Below are positions 9,683 to 59,734 of a stretch of DNA of 64,000 bases, one piece after another. Each line of letters starts with the position of its first letter. Position 1 is the first letter of the stretch. The stretch is from contig CM120645.1 of NCBI GenBank assembly GCA_051362555.1, positions 1,364,001-1,428,000 of the forward strand, in the 5' to 3' direction. The stretch is from Lingula anatina. Lineage: Eukaryota; Animalia; Brachiopoda. The translations under genes were made by a program, and so were the position numbers. The notes below the pieces were generated by a model. That model did not search any database. It saw only the letters and a program-made list of their open reading frames with translations, and was not told the origin of the DNA.

Positions 9683-9721
9683 TGGAATGAAGACACGTGT
9701 GAAGATGTACATTGTATATAT

Positions 9722-13407: not shown

Positions 13408-13409
13408 GT

Positions 13410-13763: not shown

Positions 13764-13765
13764 TG

Positions 13766-14497: not shown

Positions 14498-14534
14498 CGC
14501 TTCAACTGGAGCTCCGGGGAAAACAAAATATCAT

Positions 14535-15543: not shown

Positions 15544-15544
15544 A

Positions 15545-24837: not shown

Positions 24838-24872
24838 TCGTACGTTCAACTTGCTTTCAATGTACGTGTTAA

Positions 24873-27334: not shown

Positions 27335-27338
27335 TTAA

Positions 27339-29800: not shown

Positions 29801-29842
29801 TTAACGAAAAGGTGGGTGAGCGCACTTCCTCCGTGCGTTTAT

Positions 29843-33731: not shown

Positions 33732-35329
33732 TTTATCTTACTTCCAAAGTGCGTGGCGAGTACTACTATCGTACTTATGAAGTGCGTCACACTGAGACGA
33801 CGCATGTGACCAGCACGATAAAAGTGCGTCACAAGTACTTGCTTAGGTGCATCGTGCGCCTATATCAAAGCTGATACGAACAGTCTGCTTTCAGTTCAAA
33901 GTCGATGGCGCATCCTTCTTGGAATTGCCGATTTTGGAAGACAAAACAGTGAATGATAAAGAGACTCGGTTCTCCCTTTTATACTATTTTGATTATCCGT
34001 GCGTTCCACCAATTTGACGCACGAGTGTCGTGCTTAACACTCCCGTGCTCATTACGTTTCTCTTACGTTTCTCTTATTTAGTAAGTACGATTTCTGAAAA
34101 CACTTACGATTATCTCACTCACTGTGTGCGACACAAGTACAGATCGTGCGTGCGCCTTACTTCTTCCAACTTCCACGTTTAGAGCACGACACACCTACTC
34201 ATGAAGTACATACTACTTACTACTTAATTTTCATCCTGCGACAACGCTACGCCTGACAAGAACTCCGAGGACGTACGATCTCTTAGCACGCACGACGGGT
34301 TGTAAGAGAGGCTTTAGATCTCCCTCATAGCCCAATTCCAATTCCGGTACAATTCGTACTTAGACAAATCTGATAATTTTACAACGCAGAGAAAACCTTA
34401 TTAATATTTATATAATGGTTTTATACAAAAAATGTTATTTGGAATAAGCTGGAATGTCCGTACAGCAGCGTAGCTTGACTTCGAATGGTCGTTTCCCTTG
34501 TATTCCTCGCGTGATCTGTTCACCTTTTGAATACAGCGCCCCCTGTACCTCCTAATGACCTTCCTTCTAAGACACGTCATCGTCGACCCGTTAAACGACA
34601 ATTAATACATTAATTCGCCCTAAACTATGAAATACCTGTGAAATAGAAAATTATGCTGTGTATGCATTAATTGTGGCATAATTCAAGTCTCAGACAGAAG
34701 GAAACAGAAATATGCTAAAAAAAAAAGATGAACATAGATTAGTTGTCCCCCTGCAAGAATCTAGAATATCACTGTCTGTTACTGATATCACATGATCTCT
34801 GCTAGTACAACCTAGCCCTGGTTGGTTTACAACTTAACCTAATTTTGTTGCCTCGACCAGGTGACAATTTCCAAGAACTGTAGATAACCTATATTAAACT
34901 AGTACAGCTTAGACTTTAGATCCGCCCTGGTTGTTGACAACATCACCTGATTTTACTGTGTCGATTGGTAACAGTTTTGAAATTATACATAACTTATTAA
35001 ACTGGTGGGTGCGCAACTGCCTTGATAGTAGCTGATTGAGTGTGTCAGCCGACGAGCTGGGGGTGGTGGGGGGGGGGTTGACTGAGCCCACTTAGGTCCC
35101 TTGGTGCAAAAAATTGGCATTTCATTCAATTAAAAGATAAATAATAAATTATATTATGTAAGCAGCACTTCAGCTACAATGTAGCTGCCATAAGCCCCCA
35201 TTCTTTGTTCCCTTTGAATATAAACATTTCAGCCTTTACTGCTAAATTAAGTTTTGAACAATGGGTTTAAATACGTTTACTAAAATCCCGTTCACTCTGA
35301 GCGGCGTCCTTTCTGCGTCCTTCGTGCGA

Positions 35330-38300
35330 CCAAAGAGTTATAACAGGAGGAGATTACACGCAAGCCTCTCTATTGTCCGATGTCTGTTACGGTGGGCGGA
35401 GCTAGCTACGGGGGGCCTCCTGTCTCAAGTTCTCGTCTGCGTCGCTCTCCTCAGCTTGGAGATTGATTTCATGTGCGTTATATCGCATTAGAATTCGTGA
35501 TCAGTGGTTTCAAAACGGCGCTGTATGCTGACGATTTTATTCAGAGGTGATTATTTGAACAGTGTGCAGGGAGGGAATGATATCATAGAAAGAGGTGATA
35601 GGATGGTGACCGAGGACGGTCGCCATGAGTTTGATTTTCTATCGATGATACAAGGCTTTTTATTCCACACCCTAGAGATAAATCACTTATAAGTCGATAG
35701 AAAACGTCCCAACTGGCTTGTGAAAGTGACATTCCTCTCTGCCAAACGATATTATATTAAAACATAAAAGTTTGGACACTCCAGCCCTAAACATATAGAT
35801 TGTGACAGCGCCTATGCTTTGTGACCTTGGTTTATAATTTCTTAATTTTAAGTATTTTTCCCTCAGTAGGGCCTATAAATTTTAATATTATAATGCATTA
35901 AAGTGAAGTTCTAAACACTGAGTCGAGGCAATACAATACATGTGATAGTTTTCTGAATACAAGTTCAAAATTTATTTATTTTGGAAACTTTATTTCAGGA
36001 TAACACATACTAACACTGTTTATATTTGTCTGTGAACAAGTGACTGCAGATACAAACATAGTGCTTATCATTAATAATAATTTTTATTCATACATAAATT
36101 TATTTATGTACAAATCGATCAGAAAAATTAATATTAACTGAGCTCTTAAAAATGAGACATGAATGAAGATGAGAATACAAATTTCAATTTCTATTTACCA
36201 TATCAACTTTTTAAGTCAACTCTGTACTAAAGTTTAGTGATAGTAAGATATGTGCATAAAACCACATTTTACTGTATCAATAGATGAACAAAACCAAAAT
36301 TTTACACATAAGCAGTCATTAATAACTACACAAGTAAGATTAAGTTGCTTCAGTTTTATGCAGTATAAGTTTGCTTTTTTCAGTTTTGCAGATAAAAATA
36401 ATTATATTCTTCTACATCTGACTTGATTATTTCAGTCTGTGTCACATACTTTTCCAACTCACAGGCCAGCAAGGTCTAAGAATCTTATAGGCCGAACGAA
36501 AACAAATCAAAGAAGATAAACCGGCTTCTTATTACAAAGAGGATAAAAAATTACAGTGGGATTTTCAAAAGGTCATTATAGATCAAGACAACATTTAGAA
36601 TGAACATTTATAAAATAAATTGGAGTACATGTTACAGCTGAAAAAATTAACTTGGCTAGTAAGTGACTGCTTTTAGGGAAATTTTAGTGAAACAGTCCGA
36701 ATTTTGCAGAGAATCGGTAACATTTTATTATTAAGAAATATAGATATCTAGGTTTTGGGTTTTTTTTCCACATGACAGTAACAAATTTATGTCCACTTTT
36801 GAAATGTATAGAGTCTGTGAGGTGATTGGGAATCATTACAAATGTCACGAAGAAGCACTATAAATTTAATGATATTTCAAACAGTCTCTGTTGGCCAGTC
36901 TTGTCCAGGTCTTCTCCAAAAAGGACAGCTCGAGTTATATTATTTTCCTCAGGGCCTTTTCTTCTACCTTGCTTATGGCATGCCAGAAATAAGGGAAACC
37001 AGTATGTTAGAAAAAAATATAATAATAGCATTATGAACTATAAGTATCCAAGTATAAATTATGTAATGAAGCAATGAAGTTTAATGTGTCATTGTTGTTA
37101 TGACTTGACTGAAATAATGTTTACCACATTAATGTACAATTTACAACTAAATAAAAAAAGGCTTCTTGATTACAGGCTCATAATCCCACGAAATTGAAAG
37201 AGTTTGTACTGATTACAAGAAATTAGATATCATTCATATCAAAATTATTTAAATCTGCCCCGGCTTGGACATAATAAGATTCCTTTTTATGTCCAAGGCC
37301 CTGGTTACCACTCTTCTGACAGGACACAAAGGCCATTTCAGAAAGGCCAGTCCCAAGGTTGTTGTTTATTTGAAAATGGTGAAAAATTAGTGAAAGTTAG
37401 TGAATGTTTAATGCATTGTAGGCTTACCTCAGACACACTGAACTTCTTTTGTCACTGATATTTTAATTCTTCCCAGCCTTACCATGATTCATATTCAATG
37501 CAGCCTTCTCTCATATCTATAATAGAAATAAAAACTTGAGTAAAGTGTTTAGTAAGAATGTCTGAATCATTATTAATTATGAGAGAATTTCTGTTTTGAC
37601 ATTGCAAGACGAAATGTTTAATTTCAAGTAATGAATAAGCCATAACAGAGCTGAATACTTTTGTCATCACCGAGGCAAAGCTTCTTTCATAAAATGAACT
37701 TATACATCCAAGCTTGCCACCTAACATGCCAAAGTAATATAGTATAACTACAGTACGGAAGCAAGTACCCCTTAATTATAGAGATGTATTACACACCTTG
37801 ACTCAGAAGATGTGAAGATGTGTAGAGTGTAGTGAGATAACAGGTAAAGTAATTGGTGGAGCCTAGGTGAACTTAAAACATTGTGACTTTAATTTAAGAC
37901 GCACTGGGGTTCATATAAGTATTTTCAAAGATTTAATTTTATTTAAAACACATGTAAAAAGGGAAGTTTATAACCATAGCAAAGACTTAAAGCCAAGCTT
38001 CCTGTTAAACCGCCATGATGGAAATGCTAGGCAGGGGCCAAACCTTTCCAGTCAAAATAATTGAGCACCTTACTTTTACAACAAAGCTACCACTCCAAAG
38101 CCACCTGCCACGGTGAGAAGAAAAACGATGACCAACTGTCATCTTAATTTCTTAAAATTTTAAGCACAAAGAAATTAAAGGCAAAAATGGTGCATTTAAC
38201 CATAAAACTAAGGTGATAATTTGGCACTCTGAACAAAAAGGGTTATTTTTTTCAAGAAATATTGAAGCAATATCCATGCAATATATACCAAGCCGCGACC

Positions 38301-38424
38301 AACATGTTCAAGTACCCAAACACACCAAAATCTTTCATAATCACGCTTTTGAAAGGTGCAAACAACTTTTAGGAGTTTGGCCGTAACAAGCGTAACAGTT
38401 TTTGATCTGGACTCGTGAAAATTG
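35330..38424. mobile_element. Diverged, right-truncated second copy of the 29843-33731 element
   Basis: Starts ccaaagagttataacaggaggagattacacgc and is colinear with 29843-~32980. It ends where a Penelope-like fragment begins. Confidence 0.85.
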
Positions 38425-38554: not shown

Positions 38555-38757
38555 AATAGACTTGTTTTCCTCCAGCTCTCTGGTGAAATTAATGTTATGG
38601 TTTTGACTGCTGATAAAGTCAGAGAGGGCAGTTACAGCCTGTAAGTGATTCATGTGGCAAACGGTGAACGTGTCATGTACATATCCCAACCAAAGAAGTG
38701 GAGGAGTGGGCATGGACCCAAATGCGCTTCACCAAAGTTCTCCATATATAACATTGG
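38426..38757 (-). mobile_element. Penelope-like reverse transcriptase fragment (degenerate)
   Basis: PPLLWLGYVHDTF (W.RYVDD-like), INFTRELEENKSI and YR*ATHTNRYLNFQAH motifs. Interrupted by a homopolymer run. Confidence 0.75.
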
Positions 38758-39205
38758 TTAAAAATATTGTCCTACCTCCAGTATCATGTGCTTTTATTTA
38801 TAAATAATCACATCACAGGCGAAAATTGTTATAAATGATGATTTTCATGTACCCCCTCAAATCCGACGTTTCACTGTGATTTTCACAGGGGTAAATAAAT
38901 GTCCATTAAATTGAAAAGACGCCACCAAATGTCACCAAATTTACACACATTTAGCATTAGGGTGTCCTCGTTAAAGGCATTGTGTCTTATAGCGTCTGTG
39001 CCTACCGCGTACTGTAATTATCGTTTCTTTCTCTTTTTCATTTGCTGTATACTATCTTTTGACATTTAAAATTGTGTAAGTTCATTTGTTAAAAAATGAA
39101 GCGTATTGACAATTTGATATAATTAAACCCACATAAACTGATAGAATTCCCATTTACCATTACACTCCAGATAAGGCAAAGAGAAATGTAGAAGTGAAAG
39201 ATACT

Positions 39206-39689
39206 ATGGCAACAACCCTAGGGACAAACGGCTGCTCCGAATGGGATAATTTGTGCATTTTGATTTCTAATTATGCCCTGGTGGCTTTGCAAGATGTTCT
39301 TCACAAAGAGCTTCAGACAGTGTATCCCGAACTATTTGACCCAAACACGGGGTTGCTGAAGAAAGTGCTAGGTGATAAAACTGTCAGGGACAAACTCTTT
39401 GGATTGCCACCAAGGGTATTAAACCAACACCAGCGAAACCAGCTGTATCCTGGTGGGAATCCCTCCACATCAGTAACTGTTGGTGACTTAGACCTCACAC
39501 TGATTGTGCTTTTGCTAAGGAACATCACCTCGTTTAGGGCACATTTCTCAGGTCTCAAGTCCAATCTGCTGTCTCTCTTTAGTAAATTCACCAGTGGGGA
39601 TTATGAACTTGATGTTACCTTACTAGATTACGTACAGAACATTGTAAACCTTAGATTGGCACATGATCAATCTTTTGAAGTCATTAAAG
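39206..39689 (+). CDS. NLR-like gene exon 1: DZIP3-type HEPN-like domain (internally shortened)
   Basis: N...L......AL..VL, Q...LYP and DLDLTLIVLLLRNI motifs. Acceptor ctccag at 39170, ATG at 39206, phase-1 donor AAAG|gtatgt. Confidence 0.75.
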
Positions 39690-39906
39690 GTATGTATTCA
39701 ATGCTTTTATATGTTTCCCTGAAATCAGGTTTACAATAAATTGCCTTTATGGTTCACATTTGTCTAAAAGGAACGTGTTTTAATTAATTTCCATTATTCC
39801 TCTTGTGATTGGATGAGTAGTTAGTAATGACAGTGTCATCAGCGACATATAGCTGCAAAAAATCCTTTTTAAATATCTTACATCTTGAGACCTCATTCTT
39901 TTACAG

Positions 39907-39975
39907 GAATTCAAGAAAAGGTTCAGATGATTTGTGACTGGGTTCAAGATACGCCCACACTAGAAGAAAATCCAG
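39907..39975 (+). CDS. NLR-like gene exon 2 (linker)
   Basis: ttttacag|...CCAG|gtagg, 69 nt, phase 1-1, open frame GIQEKVQMICDWVQDTPTLEENP. Confidence 0.7.
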
Positions 39976-40544
39976 GTAGGCTAATGTGTATAGTTCAGAA
40001 AAAGTTAGAGAACAACCGCCATCTAAGATACAAAGCTTTGAACCATGCATACTGTTATTAAAACAATTCTAAGAATGACAGTTCTAAGTCAAGTTAATCT
40101 TTCTGTATTGGATGAAATTTCTACTCCCACTGTGTTACAATAAAAAATTGCAGTTGCGAAAAGTGATGATTATGATTATTTGAGGGAAGGGGGTGAAATA
40201 TCTAAAGACATTGGGTAAAATTGTTTGGCTTCCCAAATACCAGGGCCTATATCCGGGTGAAAACTGAAGCTCTGATGGATAGATAGCATGCTACACGGTA
40301 TATTGCTTTATTGAGAATAATATCATGGTTAATCCCCAAAAATTCTACGCACAGTGCATTCGTGCGTAACCTGGTTACGCCCTTGCGCTTTGCGATCATT
40401 CACGTGAATCAATGTAAAGCTGGCAATTCATATGAAAGGGTTTTTCTTTGTATGCAAATTGCCATGGTCAGGGTAAGTATGTCGATACAAGTACGTGTAT
40501 TGTGTACAGCAAAACACATTGATCATATGTTAATTCTGACCGGA

Positions 40545-40690
40545 TGACCCTGTGTTTAGAATGTCCGCCTCCGGATCTGGAGGACGTGGGTTCGACCCCG
40601 TCAAGGGACATGCCAGCCCTCCCCAGGGAGGTGAGAGCGACAACTTAGAGTGTGCAATAGGGCCAAAATGACCAGGCTTCCTTTGACTTG
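40545..40690 (+). mobile_element. tRNA-derived SINE-like head
   Basis: B-box-like GGTTCGACCCC at ~40589, preceded by a stem cctccggatctggagg. No complete cloverleaf. Confidence 0.45.
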
Positions 40691-41536
40691 TGTTTTAAAT
40701 AAAATATATATGTATGATTTTAACCCTCGGATCATGCAGCAATACAGCCAAGGGAAAAATAGATATCTTTTTAAAAATGATATTGTAACAAAAGTAGTAA
40801 TAACACAGTACAAGAAGATCATATAAATCAAAGTGCAGTTTTGTGTACTACGCAAAAAGTGCATTCACCGTGGTAGGCTCTCAAATGGAGTGACCTCCCC
40901 CCTCCCTCCCGCCTTTGCATACAGTTATCATTTTCGGAGTGGTTATACCACAAAATATACATGTTATATACCAAAGAACATTTTAACCATTTTCTTTTTA
41001 AAGTGGTTTAAGAATGCAATATGTGTTTTCTGCATAATAGTACGTCATTTACAACTCGAATTAAATATTTATGGAATATGCAAGAAAACTACACAGCCCC
41101 TTTGGCATTTCAAATAATGACCTTGACACTGGGGTGTGTGTGTGAAATAATCAATCTGTTGTTTAACTTTTGATCACATTGTAAATTTGCACGCAATTCT
41201 CTCTTTCATAGTTGTACAGGATTTGCAATTCCACACTGGAGAATTTGATTGCAGTTTAGCAGAGTCCAGAATATGTGATGATCGTCATGTTATCATATCA
41301 TAATTATATCCATTTAAACGGTGTATATACAAGGGGTACGAAAGTAATGGTTTGATAGCAGTAAAATGATCGACAAGTTAAATTTTTTTCATATTGAAGA
41401 ATACACAATGGCAAACCATTTTAAATAACAAATTACCAGTTATCGGTGTGTGTGAACTGAAAACGTTACGTGGCGTTGGCATGTGGAGTTTGTGCATGTA
41501 TTGATGCTATTTCAACAGAATAATTTTCTTTTGCAG

Positions 41537-41574
41537 GCAAAAAACAAAAAAGTAAACCAGATACCACCTATCAG
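41537..41574 (+). CDS. NLR-like gene exon 3 (38-nt linker)
   Basis: ttttgcag|GC...TATCAG|gtacg. Converts phase 1 to phase 0, which is what exon 4 requires. Reads GKKQKSKPDTTYQ. Confidence 0.65.
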
Positions 41575-42601
41575 GTACGCTCAGAACTTTATTCCTTTAC
41601 TGTGTTCTCAGCACTTATGTCTAAATGATAATGTTAAACATTATGTACGTTAGAACTCTCCTCGTCGTTTTGCCCACTTTTCCAAGATCATATACTAGCA
41701 TGTTGATGATAAGTCCGTATGTACTAGTGTATTGGACCCTATGCATTTGGACGTGTGCTATATTGCATTGCAGAAGTTCAATCAATGTTATTCTAAAACT
41801 TATTTATATTAAGACCGGTCATGTATTTTTGTTGATTTACCCAATTTTTTCATTTGTGTTGTACTGTGATTAAGCTTATATTGACATATCTTATTGAGCT
41901 TTTCAAATTATCTTGAAGATAATAACTTATATTTTACCTTATCCCACCAGTCTACTATTGCTTTCTGACTTTTTTCATCTCAAGTAAGGGCACATTAAGC
42001 AGGTATAATAATATAATAATAATAATAATGAAAATATAAAATTTCATATGCAGCCTTTTATTTTTAATTCATTAACCGATTTTCAGGCACCTGCAATTAG
42101 TCCAACTGCTTGCAGTAGTAAAAACTTTCTGCATTAAATACATGAGTCAAATACGGCGTCTTCCCTGGGACCCCGGGAGGGTGGTGGTGGTGGGGGGGGG
42201 GGGTATCCACAGAGGCTCCTGTATACTTGTGCTAGTAATTCATGATGAGTACAGGGACGGATAAAGCAAAATGTTTCAGTTTCAGTTCAGTGAGGTTTAT
42301 TATTCAACTTTTTATGTTAAATCACCTACCTATATTGTTGTAATTAGCATTTGTGTGGCAATGTTTTATTTAACTTTTATTTGGTTTTGATATACGGTGT
42401 ACATTATACATGTTTCCACTGAAATATATCTTATTTAGATTTTCATAATAAATGTTGCCTGTCCCTATACTTTTCCAACATTATTTGAAATAAAAACACG
42501 GCGCGAGCAAGATAATGCCTTTCATTTCAGTTGAAGGTTGCATTTTGCCTCTTATATTACCTAGCTAAATATAAAACCTTGGATGTGTTATCTATTTTAA
42601 G

Positions 42602-44249
42602 GTGCCTAAAACGAGTCCTGCAGAGTCAAAAAACAAGCAACTAGCCGAATTCTACATCCGTCACTTGAGCGAGATACAGCGTCTTCCGTGGGACCCCGAC
42701 GACACCGAGCACTTAGATGACGTGTATGTTAACCTGCAGTGGGTAAGAGAGGAAAGGAGACCTGAAGGTGCCAATTTTGTTCCAATCCAGAGCTACACTT
42801 CAATGTTTAAAGATACCAAACAAGGAAAAATGCCAAAAAGAATATTGGTCAAAGGAGAAGCAGGCACCGGCAAAACCACATTTACACAAAAGATGGCAAC
42901 AGACTGGGCAAATGATACACTGGGTTTAAAAGAATGTGATGAAGTATTTTCAAACTTTAAATACCTTTTAATTTTGAATCTGCGTAGGATTCTGCCTCAT
43001 CAGACACTGAAGGAAGCAATGGAAATGCAAATTCCTTGTTTTGCAGAAAGGAAAGCAGTGATAAATGAAGTCATGCAGGCCCTAGACTATGACAGTGACC
43101 ATGTTCTATTGGTCTTTGATGGCTATGATGAATATGATATCAACACTTCCAAAGAAATCACAGACATCATTCACCGCAGACGATACCAGGATGTATGCAC
43201 CATCATCACAACACGTCCTTGGAAGGCAGAACGACTAATGAACCCACGAATAATAGACGGTTTGTATGATATCATTGGGCTGACATTGGACAACATTGCT
43301 GAATATATTTCTAAATTCTTTGATGATCAAAAGACATATGACAAGTACCTGAAACTGACGTCAGGCCAGAGATCCTGTTCTAGGAGTCCGGGTGTTTTGA
43401 AGTCAATAGGGAAGGGTCTTGTAGGCTACATAGTAGAAAATGAGCTGATGTCTCTGGTGAAGATCCCAATACATCTACTGTTCATCTGTCTCATGTGGCA
43501 AGATAAAAAAAGCGATGCCCAGACAGATTCATTGCCAACTTCATATACACTACTATACAAGAAAATAATACAGTTGCTTTTAAGACAAAGATATAACATT
43601 AGGAAACAGGATGAAATGGGAGAATCTGCTCGTTTTAGAAAATTTGAAGAACAAACCTTTATCAGCCTTGGAAAACTGGCTTACGACGGGCTGGTGAAAC
43701 CAGATAGGGGTCTCATATATGATGAAAAGGACCTGCAGACAATCCCTAATGTCAGCGAATTGTACAGATCAGGTCTCCTCAGCATATCAAAGGTACACCA
43801 CAACCTCGATATTAAATGTGAAGTGACATTTCTGCACAGAACCTTTCAAGAGTTTTTTGCTGCAAAATACCTGGCGTGGACTTTAGATACAGACAACAGC
43901 GTTTTAGATATGTTTTTGGAAAGTTTAGACACCCTTGACAAGCTCTATGACATGGACTTAGTGCTGCTATTTTTGTGTGGGCTCTCTTACAGTGCAACTA
44001 CAGTAGTTTTAAACTGGGCTACACACGTGGCACGGAAGACAATACCTGCATATTCTTTCCCAAAACAAGATTTTTCAGAGAGTCAACTCACATTGGGGTT
44101 CGTCATCTGGTGTTTTGGACTCTGCGAAGAACACTGCTGTGTCTACCTTCCCCGGGGAAAACACTTTTACCCTGAGCTAACCTCCTGGTCTGAGAAACTT
44201 ACAAAGTTTGTACAACTCCGGAAAGAAGGGGCATCCGTTTTAGTTCCAG
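42602..44249 (+). CDS. NLR-like gene exon 4: NACHT NTPase with winged-helix/HD2
   Basis: LDDVYVNL, Walker A GEAGTGKTT, Walker B LLVFDGYDE, IITTRP, KIPIHLLFICLMW, LGKLAYDGL, FLHRTFQEFFAAKYL. Acceptor ttttaag and phase-1 donor CCAG|gtatgt. Confidence 0.93.
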
Positions 44250-46885
44250 GTATGTTTAATACCAATAATGATTAAAGGTGCACGTCCATTTTTATAATTC
44301 TTGTCTCCAAACATCTGTTTAATGGATTGAAAACACGCTTTTATTGTGAGGAAGTGGCGCAATTACGAAATTCAATTGCTGTTTATGCCGAACATTTGAT
44401 ATACCTCGACATTGTTTAATAGTATATTAATCAGGCGGCTAATTATCATAATTAACGAGGGTAGTGCTCGTTTCGGTGAAATCTGGATGTACAAAGAAGC
44501 TGACCCAGCATATTAAAGCCGCTCATCCAGGTACTTATAAATTTCGGCCCTACAGGGGGTATCCAAAGCTGACAATCACCCAATGATCATTCATTGTAGA
44601 AAGTTTCATACTTTTATCAACTTTCGCACAATTCTGGTAATTGTTCTCTAAGCTTCAGATTCAACACCCATCAGGTTTTTGTTTTCTAAATTTCTATAAA
44701 TGGCACATTAATTTGATAATTGACGAGTAGGCATTCGTGGAATAAAAAAAACCTGAAGACAAAAGGAGCTAACTCTCATTTTTCAAAAAGTGGTTTCTAA
44801 ACCACAGAAGGTCACCGCTTTATTTTCAACATTGAAAGTGGAAGCAACCCAATATGATAATCCTCCTTCATCCTCCAGAAAAATAATGCTATGTAATCCT
44901 TAGTCTTCTTTCTATTGTATTTCATCCAATCAGTGGCTTCAAATCCGCCACACACACCTTCATCGATGGTAGGTGTCAGCCAAGTAGTGGAGACTCAGCA
45001 TCTGAGTCCATCATCAACAGAAGAGGAAATTACACAGACTATATGTACAGAGTCTACTGCTATCAGTGTTGATGTGGGACCCAGAGCAGGTACAGATTTA
45101 TAATGCGTGTTTGTGTGTAAAAAGGTACAGTGTACAATAAGGTACCAAAGGCTGATTATAAGATGGATCAAATTACTCGCATTTAACAATAAGATTCAGA
45201 ACTGGAAGAACTTTGATTTGTGCATATTTTACTTGACAACCTGGTTTTAATTATTGCTTTGATTTCAGCTTTGGGTCACAGAACAGAAAAGTACATAGTT
45301 TTAACCAAAGACCAGTATCTTTGAAAATCTATTTAATTTTTTTAATTTTAAATTATCTGTGACACTGGTAAAGTGTAAATGTTGGTTGTTCTACTTATAC
45401 ATGTATATATTACTAATGTAATTGTCAATCACATTTCCTCTGGTTCGCGGCATTCCTATGGACCACTGTTCCTTAGGATTAGTAGTCCTAATGGGACCTG
45501 TATTCCTGTCATAAATATGGATAGGACTTCTATTCCTGGCGGACCTGCATTCCGTTTACATTAGTCAGCGAAATGGAGGTCTGCCCTTATTTTATGTCCG
45601 TCCTTTTATATCACTACGAGGTAAAGGCCAGTGACGTGACTAGTATGCCTTAGTGAGCATATATAATTACTCCGTAAAATCGTCGGTTTGCCAGTTGTCT
45701 CTATGCCAGTCTCTCTGGCGTAGGGGTTAGGCAGTACAACAATGTACACCTTGAACAGAATCTTAGAGTAATCTGAAGGGAGTTCGAATCCCTTTAAGAC
45801 TGAGTTTGCGCTTTTAGAATTTGCGTGATTTTTATGTCTTTGTCATGTTTGCTGGTCATTTTACTTTGCTACGTCAGATGGTTTTGACTGGTTACATATG
45901 TCACGCGCTTTCTTGCACTTCTATAAATACGCTCATTTTCTTATACCATACCCTCACTTGACTTTGGACATGTAAGGGACGAACAGCACCCGTACTAGAC
46001 CCAACATAGATGTTATATTTTAATACCTTCAAGAGGGCACACATCCGATAGGCACAACACCGACACAGAAAGAGTAATTCGAAGAACTAGCAAGTCGAAT
46101 TATAAAGTAAGCTTTCAATTACAGTTAATTTTCATGATGTTCAAAATACAAATCATTTCCAATATTAGCTTACACACAGACATTCATTCCCAGTAATGTA
46201 AGTCCGTCAGACCTATGCTCCCGGAATAAGTGTCCGGGGGACTACAATCTCTGGTATTTAAGGTCCGGGGGACTACAATTTAAGGGATTTTAGGTCTGGG
46301 GGACCACTCCCTCTAGGATTTTGGGTCCGAGGACAAATACTTATTATTGCTTTTCTCAGTCAAACTTTACTTACAGAAGAAAGGTTCTGTCATTAATTTT
46401 AATTTATTAATATATATAATAGTGTAATAATCATTTCCGATTGAACATGGCAAGCTATTTTATAAAGTAAATAAGAGGAAAGTGAAAGCGTCTCGGATGA
46501 AGGACAATGCAGTTCTGGTGATGGTCATGATGATCAACTTTGGCGAATAGTCGTAAGGGACGGAGAGGAAGTAGAGAAAGTTTTGGAAACACTTCATGCA
46601 TCCCCCATTGGTAAATATTTATTTTAATTATTGATTAAAAATATCAGTTACCACAAAATCAAATTCTTTGTTTTTTATCGTTTATTCCTGACACTGAAAA
46701 TATTTAAGTGTGTATCAAAAGCGATTACTTTCAATTACTTTGTTTAAAATTTAGGTGGTCATGAAGGTTGGGGCAAAACTCTTGTCAAAGTTGAGAAAAG
46801 TTTTTTTTTGGCCCAACATAGTTGACGATATTAAAAAATTCCTCTAAAAATGTGACATATGTCAACGAGTGAACAAACAAACAAA

Positions 46886-46917
<32 letters not shown>

Positions 46918-48841
46918 AAAAAAAAAAAAAAAAACGGCTGTCCACCGCTTAACCCCATAGCCGTGCATAAGCCTGAGGCGTGGAGGATGGTAAACAAGAC
47001 ATACCTATTCATCTAATAATCTAGTCATTTTTATCAGTAACATTGATATAGAAAAAATCATATTTTTATCACTATACCTTTTAAAGATATAAATCTTAAG
47101 ATTTGGAAATCAGATGTCTTTAATTTTGCAGTTATTTAAACAATTAAATTCTACAAATTTAGAGTTAAATCAAAAATGAAATATTGTTTTTTTAATTTTT
47201 ATAGATTGGCATTGAACCCATGCCTCAGACCAAAACGGGCAATGCATATGCATGCACTGTTATGTGCTATTATAGCAAACTGGCCCAGGCACGCGCATTG
47301 CCCAGTAAGGAGGCGACAGGTGTGGCCAGTTTTCTTTTGGAACTGTTTTTACGTAAGTGTCGCATTTTAGGCATATTAAGATTGATTCATAAACATCGAT
47401 TGATTGCACCATTATATGTGTAAGTTATTGATTTATATAATTAACTAAAATAATACTTACTTCATGTCATATGTCATTATAAAGTAATATATCCGCAAAA
47501 TCTCATACAGAGTGAGTTGTTAACTGAACAATCATGATCAAGTGTTTTTTTTTCGGCTTAGGATTTCCCAAGGAAATGTGAACTGACCAGGGAAGGGAGT
47601 TTAACAACAATTGGTTACATTCCATAACCACATCCCTCAAAATTAAACACAAGAGAACCACAGCTTACCATCCTCAATGCAATGGTCCCACTGGTATGTT
47701 TTATTGATATTCTTTAATAAACACATTTTATACATGTTTGTAATGCCATATATTGTCACTTATTTTAGCCCACAATTTAGGTAAGGGTTAGATTGGCCAT
47801 TTTATATAATACAGGTACATACTTTATCATGCCTTCTATACAAGTTTTCAGTTTGGTGAGATGAGTGAATGTTCTTCTATAACATTTATGTATTGGATGA
47901 ATTTTATGATTTATCCTTTTTTCCAGAACGTTTTAACCAAACCATGAAGGACATGCTGTTAAAGTATACCAGGATGATCACCACTGGGACGAAGTTTTGG
48001 GGGATGTTGTCTTTGCGTATAATACGTCCATCCATGCATCGACTCGGTTTTCCCCTTTTTATCTGATGTTTGGGAGATAAAGAGGAATTTTTAATTTTCT
48101 TCACCATAAATATTGAATTATTTGGCGTTTTGTTAAAGATTATATCCACATATTTTTTTCAATGATGTAAGTAATATTGAACAGTGTCGTCTTTTTATTA
48201 TAGGTTATCTCGGATGGATATAATAAATAAAATTTAAGGAAAGGGTAACTGTACATAGAATTAAAATTTATTTTGGCTCTAGAGAACCTGAGCTACCAAC
48301 AACAGATGTGTGCATAAGTGATGGAGAAGAGGGTAAGGAAGTGCCAGGGCCAAGTGGCATAAATGTGCCGACTGTTTCTGATTGTCAAAAAGAAGTGGAA
48401 AACCCAGCAGGCATAGTTGCGTTGGATCAATGTTGAAAACAGGTTGATACGTTGAATTGCCGTTGATCTACCTAAATTCAAAGTAAAACAACGTTGATCC
48501 AGCCACGTCGAAACACCGTCATAATGTGACGTTGACTCAACGTTGTATTTTGGTCAATGACACAACCTTGCAGTTATGGATTATGATTTAAAATATTAAT
48601 TATTGAAAACGTGATACTTTGTTAATCAATACTGTAACTAAATTTATCAATATAATAACAAAATGGTTTTAAAGTAAAATTGATAGTTGTTTTATGTCTT
48701 TAGTTAACTAGTGAATTTTCTTAACTTGTTATTCAGAAATACATTCCAATAAACTTAATTCCTTGCAAGGTCAGCTAGGATGAATAAGTTGCTGTAAATG
48801 TGATGGAGTTCGATAGACAGGGTGAGGTGACTGTGACTTTG

Positions 48842-48911
<70 letters not shown>

Positions 48912-48916
<5 letters not shown>

Positions 48917-50167
48917 GTAAAAACGTTTTTTCCTGTTCGAGTAATATTATATATAAATAAAAGAAAAAAAGAACAAAAGAACAGCAACTATTTTTGCCCC
49001 GACCGGTTTCTTTCTTTCTTCAGGGGGTTTTGTTTATTTGTTACTAGGTGATGTCATAAAGGCTAAAATGTGACGTCTGTAACAATGGGTGTTTAATTGT
49101 TACTTTTACCAATGCTTTTATCTATTCAATGTAGGTTTATACTTATTAATGAATAGATTTTCTTTCATTTCCATTTCTGTTTGGGTTGTTTCCCTAGTGA
49201 ATTTATAAAATGGGAATACCGTGAAGTCCTTGTTTTTGTTCATAGGGCATTCCCTAATATGCCCACTCACAGACGTGCACTGATATTTAGGTTGTCTTAT
49301 TTGTTGTCTGTGAACGGTCATTCTATGTCGGAGAGTGTCTCCAGTTTGTCCTATATAGTTCTCACCGCATCCACTGCAAGTTAAAACATAAATTAAACTT
49401 GAGCTAGTGCAGGTGAATGGGTGTTTAATTCTAAAAGTAAGTCCATTTTTAAATGTTAGATGGCTCCCCTCTTTAATTAGTGGGCAGGTGCCACACCTGG
49501 GTACCTCACATTTCTGTACTCGTATTGTTGAGGTTTCCACATTTGTCCTGGAATTGTTCTCAAATTTTGCTTTTGTTAAAATTTGCTTTAATGATGGACT
49601 TTGTCTCTTACTCTTTATAATCTGCATTTCGGTTAGTATCTCATTCATTTTGTCATCTTGTTTTACCAAAGGTAAGTTTCCAAATATGACATTGTGTACT
49701 TCCGGATTTTTTGGATTATATGTTGATATGTATGGTATGGCTTTCTTTTTAATTTTGTCTTTGGTGGTCCTCAGGTCGTTCTTCGGTATCTGTTTTGCCT
49801 TTTTAATCCCATTTTGTATCAGTTGTCTTGGGTATTGTCTCCTTAATAGGAATCCTTCCAGCTCTTTGAGCCTTTGTTTTAATATGGTTTCATTTGAGAC
49901 AATTGTGCATAGTCTTCGAGCTAGATTGTATGGTATGTTGTGCTTAATGTGTCTGGGATGACACGAGTTAAAAGGGAGATATTGTTTTGTGTCTGTTGTT
50001 TTGTAATACACATCTGTCTCATTGGTAAAAGTAACAATTAAACACCCATTGTTACAGACGTCACATTTTAGCCTTTATGATATCACCTAGTAACAAATAA
50101 ACAAAACCCCCTGAAGAGAGAAAGAAACCGTTCAGGGCAAAAAAAGTTGCTGTTCTTTTGTTCTTTT

Positions 50168-50170
<3 letters not shown>
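48912..50170 (-). mobile_element. 5'-truncated Penelope-like (Neptune-type) retroelement with an inverted pseudo-LTR
   Basis: Flanked on both sides by (TA)n. 48970-49114 is inverted at 50021-50165. Confidence 0.85.
49118..50011 (-). CDS. PLE RT C-terminus, Zn-finger linker and GIY-YIG endonuclease
   Basis: YYKTTDTKQYLPFNSCHP, KCEVPRCGTC, LIYVLTCSGCGENYIGQT, RMTVHR, E..FI.KY...LN. Confidence 0.9.
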   Translation of the reverse strand: MYYKTTDTKQYLPFNSCHPRHIKHNIPYNLARRLCTIVSNETILKQRLKELEGFLLRRQYPRQLIQNGIKKAKQIPKNDLRTTKDKIKKKAIPYISTYNPKNPEVHNVIFGNLPLVKQDDKMNEILTEMQIIKSKRQSPSLKQILTKAKFENNSRTNVETSTIRVQKCEVPRCGTCPLIKEGSHLTFKNGLTFRIKHPFTCTSSSLIYVLTCSGCGENYIGQTGDTLRHRMTVHRQQIRQPKYQCTSVSGHIRECPMNKNKDFTVFPFYKFTRETTQTEMEMKENLFINKYKPTLNR

Positions 50171-50232
<62 letters not shown>

Positions 50233-50999
50233 TTGGAAATTTTAACTTAAAGGGATAATAACTCTTTGTTTTGGCCAAAAAATGAATTTTCCTGGAGTAA
50301 ACAGCAATTTCCCCATACTTAATTATGGTTAATGAATCCATTTTTACATTTAAAGTTAGTCCCTGTGTTTTTTTTTTGTAAAAAGTTTGGCTTTTTGTTA
50401 AAATCTCTTAAGAGATTATAACTGAGTAGAGCTATCGATGGAGGTCACGTGATCTGAAGACAAGCTCAGACATCAGAATAATAGCTATAACTGCCGTTTT
50501 TTGAGTTGTTCACAATGTTTTTATTGTGAAATATAGCTATCACACGAAGAGTTATTATCCCCTAATTTCCCGCTGGGTGGGATTGATATAACATTGTTAT
50601 CTGAGGTTGACACAACTTTCAAATCCAACGTTTATCCAATGTGTTCTCAACGTTATTGTTCAACGTTGTTTCAACGTTAAAACAACATAATTTGCTCGCT
50701 GGGAAAAAGGGGTGGACACTATGAACAAGACAGTGGGAGAGGCAGCACTGAAAATATAAGAAAGGCACAACAAGAGCAAAAAAAAAGAAAAAAAAAAAAG
50801 AGATATGATGCTCGCCATTCTACAAATGAGGTAATACATTTCAGTGAGTGATCACTGCGTTTATTTTCTTTTTAATATATGTATATACATTACCAATAAA
50901 ACTTTTCTTTCACATATTACGACCGTTATAAGTACACCGTTTGCCTGAGGTTATGTATGCTTATTTTTTGCTCAATTTCCATTTTTATAAATTTTAATT

Positions 51000-51717
51000 C
51001 ATCATCATCATTTATCATCATTTAGAGCCTATAGTGTTCCACTGTTGGACAAAGGCCTCAGCATCCTTTTTCCATTGTTTCCTATCCTGAGCCTCAGATT
51101 TCCAGTTTGGCCAAGGTTTCTTCTTCTAAGACTTCCAGTAGTCATCTAATTCATCCCTCCATCGTTTGACCGGCCTTCCTCTTTTTCTTTGTCCATACCT
51201 TGGGGTCCACTCTGTAAGCCTGATTGTCCACCTACTGTCCTTCATTCTTTTGACATGTCCTGCCCACCTCCATTTCATTTCTTTAACTGTGAGCAGTACG
51301 TAACCATGCATTCGTTTTCCGCTCTCTTGGACTGATGTTCAACATAATCCTTTCCACCTTTCTCTGAGCTACTTGTAGCTTGTGTTCCATGGAGGCATCC
51401 AGTGTCCAGGTCTCTGAACCATAGGTGATTGCCGGCAGCACACAAGCATTGAACACTTTCTTTTTCAGGCAGGTAGGAAGGTTGCTCTTGAAGATGTCAT
51501 TGTGCTTCCCATATGCTGCCCATCCTGCTTTTATCCTTCGTTGGATTTCTTTCTCCAGTGTTCGGTCACTAAGGCTGAACCGTTGCCCAAGTTATATATA
51601 CTCCTCTACTGCTTCTATCTCTTTGGTGTTGACCTTCACTGTGCAAGGGGTGGTTAGTGGTCCAAACATCACCTTTGTCTTGCTGGTGTTCATCTTTAGC
51701 CCACTTTTTGCGCTTTT
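51000..51717 (-). mobile_element. RTE-clade LINE 3' fragment
   Basis: GLKMNTSKTKVM, TYGSETWTL, KWRWAGHVKR..D.RW, R.RGRP..RW.D motifs. (TGA)n tail and aattttaatt on both flanks. Confidence 0.88.
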
Positions 51718-52666
51718 AATTTTAATTAAATTATTATCAATTATGTCAAAAAGGCTTATCATAATTAAATCTATTACACAGGTTTTTACCTTAGGTACAA
51801 AGGTTCTAAAACACAATCTAAGAAGATCAGACAGAAAAGGTGGAAAGCAGGAAGATCCCTGGCTAGGGCCTTATGTAATAAAAGGAATATCACAAACTGG
51901 AGCGTACATCTTGCAAATAGAAGGAGGATGCACCCTTTAAGGTGCAGTCAGCGGCTCGAATTTGAAAATTTATCTGACAAATGAATGGGCCTACTTAAAT
52001 GAAAATAAATTTATAACAACTTCTTATTTGTGTTATTTTTCAGTATTAATTTTTGTTTTTTCATTCAGTTTGTGAACATCAAAATAATAAAGGTAACGGC
52101 AAAGGTCACTTTAATACATATATATTATTATTAATTATATGTAACATATATTTAAGTGCGAGATAAAAGTCAAATCGGACATAATGTCCTCGTATATATC
52201 AGGAAAACAGGTCCCATCCGGACTTGCATTCCTTGCAATGGGACTTACATTCCTTGTAAACTGATGTCCCACGGACGTTAATTCCTAGTAACGTATGTTC
52301 TAGGACATCCGTTCCTAGAAAAGCTAGACCAAGGATTTGCATTCCCAGGACTTGCATTACTAGGACTACAATTCCGTTCACACCGGGCAAGTTACAATAT
52401 ATTCCTCGTCTACAGACGACGGTCGTAAAGGTGTTGGTCAACTTGGCAAGATTGTGTTGAAATACTGCCAAAGTGCTGTCGGGCTAATAGTTACACTGCC
52501 GGTGGCCCATTAAAGGTTCACGGATGCTAGTCTTAATTCGACTTGTATGGTTTTTCATTTTTGGACATTTTTCACAATAGCGTTTTTCACTGTGGAAAAG
52601 CTCAGCTTAGTAGCTATAATGAGCCATTAACGATTGTATTTATTTATTTTTGTTTTGTTTTTGTAG

Positions 52667-54051
52667 ATGCCATTGAAACGGCTTGCTATTCATTTCCACG
52701 GAAACCTGGGGTTATGACCGTTTTCCCAGCATACAAAGCAAATGGACAGCATCCACCATTCATTGCAGTGCTAGTGAGCATAGAATTCTGTGAAGATAAG
52801 ATGGCAGAACATGATGGATTTGCTGTTAATTACTATTCATGGGACCTGCCAGATATGGAAGCCCAGAAGGCCTTCTTTTCAAAAGCAGCTGAAGACAACC
52901 CGATTCCACCCAGAACATCTATTGAAATTGGACAGGCCATACAAAAGTCTTCAGAACATCTTTTTAAAAACCACAGAAATCTGACAATAATTTCGGCATC
53001 TCCTGTTAAAGCGCAAGGAGGTGAAATAACATGTAAACCATGTATAGTATTATATTGTCGCGCAAAAGGTGTGGTCCCATTGGGTGATTCCCTGTTTCCA
53101 AAGTTAATTGAAGGTATTCCAGTAGATGTACGCGAAGGATTTGTTTCCTTGTCCATGCATAATAGTAGCCCACAAACCCCACAAAATGTGCACTTTGGCC
53201 AAAATACTACATTTTACTGTAACCCATTGAGGATGGGATGCAGTGTTGGACTGACAAAATCGAGTTTTACGGGTACCTTGGGAATGTTCGTACAACATGA
53301 GGGGACACCATGTTTCCTCACATGCTCCCATGTATTAGGCATCCCACCACCTGCCATAGAGGCTGAGGTCTGCCAACCGTCTGATGCAGATGTAAGGACA
53401 AACAACTACAACAAGCAAGATATTGCATCTAAAGCCAAAAGCAAAGTGTGTGGTGTAGTCAAAAAAGTTTACTTTGACAATTTTGAATATAATGGTAAAG
53501 AATATGGCATTGATGCAGCTCTTATCGAAGTCAAGCATAGAGATATCCATGCTGTACCAGCAGGGTTAACGCCTGAAACATTGCAAAATCTTAATCTTAG
53601 TGAAGATGAATTGTCCTTTAACAATGCGGAATGCATTGAACCAATGAACAATGAAACCAATACAGTTTTAAGCCCCAATGTAGTTGTGTACAAATGTGGT
53701 AGGACTGGTCTCACCCGTGGTTGTGTCAGTTTTGAAGGAGGCACTGCTTTCCAAACAAAAACTATAAAATTTAAGAAGGAGCAACCAGGTGGTACATTTA
53801 CATATCTTGAAAAAGAATTTCGAAATGTGGTCGAGGTGCGTGGTGTTGACTGCGTGTTTTCTGACGAGGGAGACTCTGGCGCTGCAGTATTCCTGTTAAA
53901 GGGACCAGATAGACATAAAAGCCCTCATCCAGTGGGAATGGTGGTGGCAAAGACCTCTTATCATTCTACTTTGATGTCACCCATTTGGCCAATTTTTGAA
54001 TGTTTTAACATCAAACTGGCAAGAATAGAGGAGGGAATGGAATGTGAGTGA
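52667..54051 (+). CDS. Terminal exon: Nal1-like trypsin-fold serine protease
   Basis: N-domain CIVLYCRAKG.VP.G...FP..IEG.PVDVREG, then GTLG.FV, FLTCSHV (His), GIDAALI (Asp), VYKCGRTGLTRG and FSDEGDSGA (Ser). A long polypyrimidine tract and tgtag give a phase-1 acceptor. Confidence 0.85.
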
Positions 54052-54199
54052 CATGGTTGAACCATAAAACAACATGGTAAAATGTGTAGACCATACCATA
54101 ATTATGGTTAAATTTAGACTTTATTTAATACTCATATTACCAATAATGATGTAGTTTTTGGCAGCAATACGTACATATAGACTTCGTTGACATAAAATT

Positions 54200-54502
54200 C
54201 TGAAAAGAAAAACGAGTTTTGTCAGAAGGTATATTTTTAAAAACGTTGTTTTATTGAAATGAAAAAAGTGAAAGTGATATATCTTAAAATAGTTCAATGG
54301 ATTATAAATTGAGGTGCCTGAAATTGGTTGATAACTGTGTTCAGCATGATGTCCCTTGTTAGTGGTGAGATTTATAAGTGACATACATGCGTACATAAAT
54401 ATAATAGACGAAGGCAACTTCACTGTGATGAGAACAGTAAGTGTTGCTTGGAATTGGTTTTATCCTATTTTTATTGCACTATTATATATACATGTATGCT
54501 AG

Positions 54503-54544
<42 letters not shown>

Positions 54545-56530
54545 ATTTAACAAAAATGTTAATCCAGTGTGTAAATGAGCATGCATACTGATGGATGAAT
54601 TATGGGTATTTAAATAGAGGCTTTAACTCGACTAATGGTAAAACAAGTTTTGTCAGAAGGTTTCTAAGTTATTTTAATGTGGTGAAAAAGTGAAACAACT
54701 AAAATTGATTCAATGGATTATCGAAAATGAGGTATATGAAATGTGCAGTTGATTACTGCAATTCGGCATGATATCCACTTTGGGGTTTAGAAGTGACAGT
54801 TCATGTAACATTGGCTGTCTTAAATCCGTATTTTTTCATTTCATTCATATGTGCTTTTTTATCAGTTATATCCGTTTTTTAAGTACATTAATCCTTAAAT
54901 AGTATTGTTCAAACGCACCCACATGTATAAAGGATAACGTATTATTCGCGGAAATTTAACCTTATTTACAATGTATAATCATACTGAAAGTCAGTCTATG
55001 TTCGGGTCTATTTACTGAGCTTGATTTGAGGGAATATACTACCTGCATATTGTGTGAATTATACGCAGTATGTGCCTCCTTTATTACATGTATGGGAAGA
55101 TACTGGGCTTAAACCTTAAACAGGTAAAAAGTAAATGTATTTACATACACTGTATATAAATATGAAACTGCAAGTCGATATTTTTATTTTATTTTATCTT
55201 ATAATATTAATATGTTTTTATTATCATTAGTCACAAAATATGGTTTATATCTTAAAACGTTTGACATAATTCATACCTGTATATACAATATTTTGGTAGG
55301 GGAAAGGCGGCGTGTAGTCCTAGGAAAGAAAGTCTGGGTTCCCATATGATAAGTAAAGGTTAGTTGTTAGTTGGGGGTATTGGAGTTAGAATAATTGGAC
55401 AAATGTCACCTGTACAAAGTAACGGGAAACGGACTACGGTTCCTAACGAACTTATCTTATTTTTATTGCTCTATCATACATACTTGTATGCTATCATCAT
55501 CATCATCATCATTATTATTATTATTATTATTATTCACAAAAATGTTAATCCAGCGTGTAAATGAGCATGCATACTGATGGATGAATTATGGGTATTTAAA
55601 TAGAGGCTTTAACTCGACTAATGGTAAAACAAGTTTTGTCAGAAGGTTTCCAAGTTGCTTTAATGTGGTGAAAAAGTGAAACAACTAAAAATGATTCAAT
55701 GGATTATCGAAAATGAGGTATATGAAATGTGCAGTCGATTACTGCAATTCGGCATGATATCCACTTTGGGGTTTAGAAGTGACAGTTCATGTAACATTGG
55801 CTGTCTTAGATCCGTATTTTTTTCATTTCATGCATATGTGCTTTTTTATCAGTTATATCCGTTTTTTAAGTGCATCAATCCTTAAATAGTATTGTTCAAA
55901 CGCACCCACATGTATAAAGGATAACGTATTATTCGCGGAAATTTAACCTTATTTACAATGTATAATCATACTAAAAGTCAGTCTATTTTCGGGTCTATTT
56001 ACTGAGCCTAACTTGAGGGATAATACTACCTGCATATTGTGTGAATCATACTCAGTCTGTGCCTCTTTTATTACCTGTATGGAACGATATTGGGCTACTT
56101 TAAACAGGTAAAAAGTAAATGTATTTACATACACTTTATATAAATATGAAATAGCATGTCGATATTGATATTTTTATTATATCTTATAATTTCAATATGT
56201 TTTTTTTTAATTCAACCATGATCAGAAGTTTGTATATATCTTATAAGTTTGACATTTATCTTACCTGTTCATACAACATTTTGCCAAGGGAAGGGCAGCA
56301 TAAGGATACAGATGATGTAATTAATATACGAGGGCACCTTAACTGTGATATGTACAGGAAATGTTGTTTGGGATTGGTTTTAACTTTTTTCATTACTCTA
56401 TCTTATTTACATGCCTTTTATTATTATTATTGTTATATTTAAAAAAACATTAACACGGTGTTTAAATGAACATATGAATTATGATGAATTATGAATATTT
56501 TAATGAAGGCTTAAACTCGACCAATGGCAG
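54200..56530. repeat. ~1-kb tandem duplication with degenerate partial copies on both sides
   Basis: aaaatgttaatccag.gtgtaaatgagcatgc at ~54553 and ~55538, each preceded by (ATT)n. Related pieces at ~54210 and ~56420. Confidence 0.85.
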
Positions 56531-58937: not shown

Positions 58938-59029
58938 TAGTTAAGCAGTCGCTACCAAAGTATGGCTAACCTTAGATAAATATATAGGGCATCATTTGCC
59001 ACTATGATTGAGGCTCTGGGCCTGAGAAA

Positions 59030-59734
59030 TTGGGATATCTGCACCTCTCACAAGCATGTGTTAATTATAACATCCCTATCCTCCAACAGATGGTGTCCTT
59101 GAAGTACATTAACATACTACCGGAATGTGTGGTATCACCGAAAGTTCCACCTATACTGGGAAAACTGCCTGGTATACGTCACGATTTGATTTGTATAAAT
59201 CTTTACTCATATCTCGGTGTTGAGGGTGTAAAACTTCTGTCGAGTAATCTTCATCATGTACCAGTATTGGAAGAACTGGTGCTGGAACGGGTATTCAAGA
59301 AAGGAATCATTTTTAGTTCTCACTTGCAGGGACTTAGTGCAAATATGTTCGAATACTATAAAATTGATGCGATAGAAGATGATAAAGACGTGTATCAAGC
59401 TGTACTTGAACTGAGCTATGGTGTCAAACACACCACCAAATTGAAATACTTCTCAATCAACCGCAATCAGTTGGGTCGGTACCATGGTATCACCAGTCCA
59501 CTCACAGCGTTAGTACGGTCCCTCAGAACAGTGTCCAAAAAGACCAGAATGAGGATTGGAATGAGAGATAATGACCTTGGCAGAGTTGACCGCCTCAATG
59601 AGCTAATAAAGAGCATTAAGAGCACCTTCAAGTATGTTTGCAGTTGGGGCATAACGTTTAATGGTATTACATATGATGACCTACTAGTACAGATGTCCGA
59701 CTTCGACAAATGTGCAGTGGGTGCTGATTGGTGA
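59030..59734 (+). pseudogene. NLR-type LRR-like terminal exon, open for 234 aa but damaged at its 5' end
   Basis: LGVEGVKLLSSNLHHVPVLEELVL, LKYFSINRNQLG, MRDNDLG and ITFNGI repeats. In-frame stops immediately upstream and a repeat insertion. Confidence 0.7.

Follow-up and report, generated by a model that had tools for sequence, protein, structure and literature searches.

A predicted NACHT-linker-protease gene of Lingula anatina and the likely repeated fusion of NAL1-like proteases to STAND NTPases

A window of 64,000 nucleotides (nt) from the brachiopod Lingula anatina (contig CM120645.1 of assembly GCA_051362555.1, positions 1,364,001 to 1,428,000 of the forward strand; all coordinates below refer to this window) contains, between positions 39206 and 54051, a gene that is predicted to join a NACHT module of the type found in receptors that combine a nucleotide-binding domain with leucine-rich repeats (NLRs) to a serine protease resembling rice NAL1. 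The gene most likely consists of six exons with a total of 3780 nt and encodes a protein of 1259 amino acids (aa) that includes a truncated HEPN domain, a NACHT module lacking a CARD, a Ser/Thr-rich linker and a Nal1-like protease. The same succession of NACHT, linker and protease is found in an annotated protein of Lingula anatina, P0001 (LOC106157810, XP_013389014.1; "uncharacterized protein" in RefSeq), and, as far as comparison of predicted proteins goes, the architecture is conserved and recurrent. The functional reading that we favor, which we place a little below an even chance, is that a single six-exon protein is made in which oligomerization of the NACHT module would cluster and activate the tethered protease, which would then cut a downstream target without a separate caspase.

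The first-pass annotation of this region, made from the letters of the window alone, proposed five exons (39206-39689, 39907-39975, 41537-41574, 42602-44249 and 52667-54051). All five have AG/GT ends and phases 1, 1, 0 and 1 as described, and they join without an internal stop into 3624 nt (1207 aa). The exons and their frame thus stand, but the model overlooked a sixth exon, and the direct splice from NACHT to protease across 8.4 kb is likely wrong. The additional exon (44934-45089, forward strand; 156 nt, phase 1/1, encoding a 52-aa Ser/Thr-rich linker) lies between the two, is flanked by introns of 684 nt and 7577 nt, and is 78% identical to residues 637-687 of P0001; because this exon is conserved in P0001, the direct splice was rejected as the main form. 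Loss of the CARD, the deletion of 47 aa from the HEPN region and a relic of a leucine-rich repeat (LRR) region at 59012-59734, all described below, were likewise absent from the first-pass annotation.

In the six-exon model, which lies on the forward strand, exon 1 (39206-39689) carries the start codon and a truncated DZIP3-type HEPN domain (Pfam HEPN_DZIP3, E 1.1e-13). Two short spacers with AG/GT ends follow, namely exon 2 (39907-39975; 69 nt, phase 1/1), which resembles a spacer of the paralog P0003 in an alignment, and exon 3 (41537-41574; 38 nt, phase 1/0), which is of the KPDT type. Exon 4 (42602-44249) encodes the CARD-less NACHT module, with a nucleotide-binding domain, helical domain 1, winged-helix domain (WHD) and helical domain 2 (HD2), and ends in a phase-1 donor; read-through leads to a stop at 44275. 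This donor, at 44249, has a good CAG/GTATGT sequence and is 684 nt away from the linker acceptor. Exon 6 (52667-54051) encodes the Nal1-like protease in 461 codons followed by a stop. The 7577-nt intron between linker and protease (45090-52666) contains the transposon debris reported previously, made up of fragments of gypsy-like, Penelope-like and LINE-like elements, including a Penelope-like GIY-YIG match (Pfam E 7e-6), and with stops and frameshifts in three-frame translations, but a single 8.4-kb intron joining NACHT and protease was not confirmed. For the six other strong acceptors in this intron, the phase-1 frame stays open for 45 codons at most.

Support for the layout comes from P0001, which is organized as CARD-NACHT-linker-protease and is 77% identical to the present gene in the NACHT module, 76-78% in the linker and 85% in the protease. 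The NACHT module of P0001 ends at the very residue that corresponds to the donor at 44249, and a Ser/Thr-rich linker and then the protease follow. Because NACHT end, linker and protease are all shared, the NACHT-linker-protease layout predates an aa divergence of about 20%, through which both copies have stayed open; the RNA basis of the annotated P0001 model was not seen. In a neutral simulation (1500 runs, with indels not included), the NACHT exon remained free of stops in 2% and the protease exon in 20% of the runs after half of the aa changes that separate the gene from P0001, and in 0.07% and 5% of the runs, respectively, after all of these changes. The linker exon is also 41-51% identical to the spacers that precede the CARD in P0005 and P0003; in these canonical paralogs, the linker-type exon sits upstream of CARD-NACHT.

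The NACHT exon matches the Pfam NACHT family (E 1.1e-17) and shows the features of a canonical NLR: Walker A and Walker B are intact, as claimed from the outset (Lys at 42872; Asp at 43118 and 43127), and the sensor-1 Arg (43214) and the WHD His (43835) are in place. The C-terminal LRR typical of canonical NLRs is missing from both the six-exon model and P0001. A structural model of the module has a predicted local distance difference test score (pLDDT) of 79.8, with values below 50 in the last ~30 residues, and a Foldseek search with it gave NLRC4 as the best match (E 6.8e-20), with NOD2 and NLRP3 also among the closest. The module is 55-64% identical to LRR-bearing Lingula paralogs, and the top five of the 19 long NACHT relatives are Lingula anatina proteins. 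A relic of the 3' part of an NLR LRR region is found downstream of the gene (59012-59734, forward strand). It comprises 240 open codons with a stop just upstream and shares 43-47% identity with the C-terminal ends of P0002 and P0003; a Pfam scan of this stretch gave no significant LRR match. Only weak acceptors are present at this relic, one of which (AAG at 59055) has the phase of the NACHT and linker donors. A second relic of an LRR end, at 15537-16022 on the forward strand, is 59-62% identical to P0002 and P0003 and has a 38-aa insert compared to them. A relic, broken duplicate of the 5' end of a CARD-less NACHT exon is located at 42087-42177 on the forward strand, with tblastn matches of P0001-P0004 at 42118-42177.

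The protease exon encodes ~80 extra N-terminal residues, an N-domain of the NAL1 type and a trypsin-fold domain. The catalytic residues reported in the first-pass annotation are confirmed (His at 53329, Asp at 53512 and Ser at 53875), and this triad, H221, D282 and S403 of the exon product, is invariant in all 31 aligned sequences. A single-sequence search of PDB with the protease and a Pfam scan of its domain gave no match, whereas a profile of 31 family members retrieved rice NAL1 with E 8e-12, the next match being at E 0.075. The structural model of the protease is confident (pLDDT 88, predicted template modeling score 0.89), and NAL1 chains rank first in both the Foldseek (E 1.9e-15) and the VIA-align (Z 24.3) comparison; the latter aligns 306 residues at a root-mean-square deviation of 4.7 and covers model residues 80-454, so that the first 80 residues are barely tested by it. 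Because fold and profile both point to NAL1, the label "Nal1-like" is supported. On its own, the protease core aligns with alpha-lytic protease at Z 20.8; a low-confidence loop (residues 168-177) lies between this core and the N-domain. An invariant Lys133 may be the counterpart of Lys139 of NAL1, which we note as a lead only. The two-copy complex prediction of the protease scored 0.00 and was not used as evidence. A dead protease serving as a decoy was considered and rejected given that the triad is kept.

The N-terminal region has been eroded in comparison with canonical relatives. An HEPN-like domain is indeed present, as originally proposed, but only in truncated form, and activity as an effector is unlikely: the Pfam HEPN_DZIP3 match in exon 1 spans model positions 2-65 of 144, compared with 2-144 in the canonical paralog P0003, and an alignment with P0003 shows a 47-aa block to be deleted. 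Active HEPN nucleases carry an R-x4-6-H motif, and the deleted block holds, in P0003, an R-x-H-type motif which we take to be this one; with the motif-bearing block gone, an active HEPN nuclease was rejected, and the truncated domain is likely a passive remnant. The CARD is also lost relative to P0003, leaving no intact N-terminal effector, be it a death fold or a full HEPN domain. Loss of the CARD is not in itself a sign of decay because CARD-less NACHT exons are present in expressed paralogs.

Judging by its relatives, the predicted NACHT-protease fusion is not a one-off, and the protease is a widely shuffled C-terminal module in lophotrochozoans. A family profile scan retrieved 599 proteins at E ≤0.001, and 153 relatives, that is, 150 listed of the 599 matches plus those from another search, were scanned against Pfam. 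Most of these have no recognized N-terminal partner. STAND NTPases were detected in four of the 153, namely NACHT in P0001 and in P0060 of Mercenaria, and nSTAND3 in P0056 and P0064 of Saccostrea. Other partners include ankyrin repeats (13 proteins) and DUF4559 (three, one of which is P0060), along with Roc-COR, DED, a weak CARD, PARP14-like, HSP70-like, LRR, Ig and NHL in one protein each. HEPN-like (DUF4559) domains are fused to the protease without NACHT in P0132 and P0153 of Mercenaria and Mya. All the family members that were named by look-up or in the searches are from brachiopods or bivalves (six of the 20 looked up are unnamed). Among 111 near-full-length domains, the protease is nearly always last (a tail of more than 120 residues follows it in five), and H/D/S is kept in 99, with Glu at the acid position in nine. 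Two Lingula proteins, the Roc-COR fusion P0020 and the lone protease P0028, share the residue at which the module starts, in agreement with shuffling of a phase-1 exon. Pfam mostly misses this large unnamed family (only four of the 153 relatives reach the Nal1_C cut-off of 26.1 bits), and NLR surveys would therefore score such genes as NACHT-only.

Fusions of the protease to STAND NTPases likely arose at least three times. In trees built with FastTree on 111 rows and with IQ-TREE on 28 of these rows chosen by hand, the exon 6 protease groups with the Lingula proteins described above, whereas the fusions of Mercenaria and Saccostrea fall among bivalve members that lack a STAND NTPase. A single clade for the NACHT-fused proteases of Lingula and Mercenaria is rejected by the approximately unbiased (AU) test on the 28 rows (p 5.5e-36), and the NACHT domains of the Lingula gene and P0060 are only 23% identical; these two results together argue for repeated origin. 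The fusion in Saccostrea is likely a further separate origin, given its position in the tree and its different NTPase family. A repeat profile search for long proteins found no further STAND fusion. P0060 (LOC123526246, "uncharacterized protein") combines DUF4559, NACHT, an LRR-like region that was seen by eye and has no Pfam match, and a protease at the far C-terminus with Glu at the acid position. Separately, P0020 (Lingula LOC106167508) joins Roc-COR to a protease exon that is 57-60% identical to exon 6, and is thus a second NTPase-protease fusion in the genus. Several members (P0097, P0127, P0073 and others) also show weak Pfam matches, one of them above the cut-off, to peptidase S64, the family of yeast Ssy5, which suggests that NAL1, Ssy5 and the animal proteases are related.

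The gene likely originated in a tandem NLR array. A NACHT exon cut after HD2 would have come to precede one of the family's spacer exons, a protease exon of phase 1 that carried a stop would have become the last exon, and the LRR end would have decayed into the relic at 59 kb. Turnover of this kind in the array is in keeping with the second LRR relic at 15537-16022 and with the relic NACHT start at 42087. In the favored reading, LRR-bearing paralogs, once activated, would most likely seed the oligomerization of the NACHT module. Having no LRR sensor, the present product would most likely be an executor that is seeded in this manner, just as NAIP seeds NLRC4. The flexible tail of the NACHT module (pLDDT <50) and the linker, together ~80 residues, could allow the proteases to meet and switch on. 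One candidate substrate is GSDME, which is reported from brachiopods (PMC11508797). Precedents exist for both partners: rice NAL1 has no activity in its trimeric form and requires a hexamer to align its triad (PMC12012508), and in bacterial Avs2-trypsin, tetramerization of the STAND module assembles and activates the fused protease (bioRxiv 10.64898/2026.08.25.746987). The proposed activation of the Lingula protease by oligomerization gains a basis from the hexamer requirement of NAL1 and the Avs2-trypsin precedent.

Several observations weigh against this reading, starting with RNA. Four RNA runs, all from other individuals, were compared with positions 38560-46000, and 6%, 6%, 25% and 30% of each were read. 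Reads at least 99% identical to the locus number zero in these runs, and reads 95-99% alike number 0, 1, 24 and 18; exons 2 and 3 have no depth; and no joint leaving 44249 is found among those listed (82 loose ends were recorded besides), so that reads across the NACHT donor, the check suggested in the first-pass annotation, are lacking from the fractions covered. Several alternative isoforms are open: exons 1-2-5-6 with NACHT skipped (697 aa), read-through of the NACHT exon to the stop at 44275 with an ATTAAA at 44271, and joins to the LRR relic through the AAG at 59055 (972 and 1024 aa). Avs2-trypsin without its sensor region is active in the absence of ligand (bioRxiv 10.64898/2026.08.25.746987), so an LRR-less form would need another brake. 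In an NLR wheel, a protease at the C-terminus would be placed on the rim rather than at the hub; the 3-fold assembly of NAL1 does not match the 8- to 11-fold symmetry of the NLR rings among the fold matches; and STAND fusions make up a small share of the family (4/153).

The reads that do match derive from paralogs and show how related exons are used. In six paralog reads of run X9, which leave the reference at the 3' end of the linker exon and confirm this boundary, a linker-type exon is joined to a small exon similar to exon 3 and then to a CARD-less NACHT exon. The start of the CARD-less NACHT exon is covered by 3+1 reads in X7 and 4+3 in X9, and paralog reads also join the relic stretch 42087-42177 to the NACHT body. 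These joins show that CARD-less forms are expressed and that the linker is usually located upstream of NACHT. In addition, ~7,200 X1 reads match 40540-40600 in part (90-95%) and continue into other sequence; they probably represent an abundant transcript that is encoded elsewhere and is either repeat-derived or tRNA-like.

Among the alternatives, a fused protein might be made in which the protease takes the place of the LRRs as a sensor or as a brake that holds the NACHT module closed, the module being freed by cleavage, self-cleavage or binding of a pathogen protease inhibitor. We consider this unlikely. The protease does occupy the place of the LRR sensor; in P0060 the LRR-like region is retained and the protease is appended to the far C-terminus, in the manner of plant integrated domains; the CARD of P0001 could carry an output; and the alpha-lytic protease match, together with the loop at 168-177, offers a possible site of self-cleavage. 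However, the present gene has no evident N-terminal output because the CARD is gone and the HEPN domain is half present, the conservation of the triad in 99 of the 111 domains argues against a dead decoy, and in most family members there is no NACHT that could be regulated.

Alternatively, NACHT and protease might mostly reside on separate transcripts, through skipping of exons 3-4 as a phase 1/1 cassette, termination at 44275 or the join to the LRR relic, which we judge unlikely. Every alternative join is open, the linker-type exon lies upstream of NACHT in expressed paralogs, the DUF4559-protease proteins P0132 and P0153 exist without NACHT, and both the ATTAAA at 44271 and the in-phase acceptor at 59055 would suit such transcripts. 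On the other side, the annotated P0001 joins NACHT through the linker to the protease with conservation up to the donor, the good donor at 44249 is close to the linker acceptor, and the LRR relic has an upstream stop and weak acceptors. That the gene is a young silent chimera of NLR-array turnover with no working protein appears very unlikely: the deleted HEPN core and CARD, the relic exons at 42087 and 59012, the transposon-filled intron and the lack of reads of at least 99% identity in the four partly read runs would agree with it, but all six exons are open with every catalytic motif kept, both large exons would stay free of stops on this branch in only ~0.4% of neutral runs (the product of the half-change values), the second copy with the same layout (P0001) is open too, and the RNA came from other individuals, with tissues not stated.

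Several known systems come close to the predicted protein. The bacterial Avs2-trypsin(-MBL), trypsin-NACHT and trypsin-nSTAND proteins likewise hold a STAND NTPase and a trypsin-fold protease in one chain, as predicted here. Avs2-trypsin has an N-terminal protease, a C-terminal tetratricopeptide repeat sensor and an MBL substrate in its system, whereas the Lingula gene has a C-terminal NAL1-type protease and no sensor repeat; membership in Avs1 or Avs2 was rejected given the reversed domain order, the lack of a repeat sensor and the different protease type. Most clusters returned by a feature search with P0001 are of bacterial trypsin, trypsin-NACHT and nSTAND3 proteins; all scores are below 0.9, and the matches are leads only. 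Rice NAL1 (PDB 8HAU, 8PMI, 7Y77) shares the N-domain, the trypsin fold and the H/D/S triad, but the Lingula protease is only 18-19% identical to it, has the ~80 extra N-terminal residues and is fused to NACHT; NAL1 requires a trimer or hexamer cage for activity and binds ATP at the N-domain. The canonical Lingula NLRs (P0002-P0005) share the NACHT module and the spacer exons, and among animal NLRs of the NLRC4/NOD2 type NLRC4 is the best fold match; here linker and protease replace the LRRs, the CARD is absent and HEPN is truncated. P0001 has the same NACHT-protease layout but starts with a CARD instead of a truncated HEPN domain. P0060 also has NACHT with a C-terminal protease, and differs in its DUF4559, its distant NACHT (23%), its LRR-like region, its Glu and its separately derived protease. 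Plant NLRs with integrated domains likewise carry a foreign domain fused to an NLR scaffold. These integrated domains mostly act as effector baits; in the Lingula gene, the added domain keeps a catalytic triad and the LRR is lost.

Animal NLRs are known to signal through death-fold adaptors and caspases, and the combination of a STAND core with a serine protease is established in bacteria. The first-pass claim that a Nal1-like protease replaces the LRRs of a NACHT protein is supported by the layout of P0001 and by the fold match to NAL1. The accompanying remark that no description of such an architecture in animals was known holds for the literature searched, where we found no description of an animal NACHT-serine protease fusion or of an animal NAL1-like family (judged mostly from search listings, in a literature made up mainly of freely available papers without supplements), but fusion proteins are already present in RefSeq as "uncharacterized". 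Among individual sources, PMC8195603 mentions trypsin effectors for bacterial systems only (in 12 of 13 places examined), a metazoan NLR survey that includes Lingula (PMC11508797) does not contain "protease", "peptidase" or "trypsin", PMC12642450 does not contain "Nal1", and PMC12915138 has no match for terms on this theme.

Extending the favored reading to the family, we put forward, distinctly tentatively, a caspase-independent immune protease system of lophotrochozoans, in which a NAL1-like protease that is active only when clustered would have been exon-shuffled onto NACHT, nSTAND3, Roc-COR, ankyrin, DED, CARD and PARP14-like partners. The gene described here would then be a one-chain inflammasome executor, the animal counterpart of Avs-trypsin, in a class of fusions that would have arisen at least three times (brachiopod, clam and oyster). 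If active, such proteins would give invertebrate NLRs, those of farmed bivalves among them, a new output that can be tested, and would provide the first proposed role for animal NAL1-like proteases.

Several other elements are located in the window. Just past the protease stop lies a tandem duplicate (54460-56299; 90%, ~850 bp) with a third partial copy, and the stretch 54052-56500 contains one ATTAAA and no AATAAA. On the reverse strand, positions 9112-9753 hold an open stretch of 214 aa whose C-terminus is hydrophobic and for which Pfam gave no significant match. The region 11183-15623, which adjoins the second LRR relic, encodes an integrase with a chromodomain (Pfam rve, E 5e-14) and a weak adenovirus-type protease match (E 0.05), together with open reading frames of 478 and 254 aa that have no Pfam match; we take it to be a Polinton/Maverick-like fragment. 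Finally, an exact tandem duplication of ~2.47 kb (24869-29804, 100% identity) is either very recent or an assembly artefact, and is followed by a degenerate repeat (75%) at 29827-38424.

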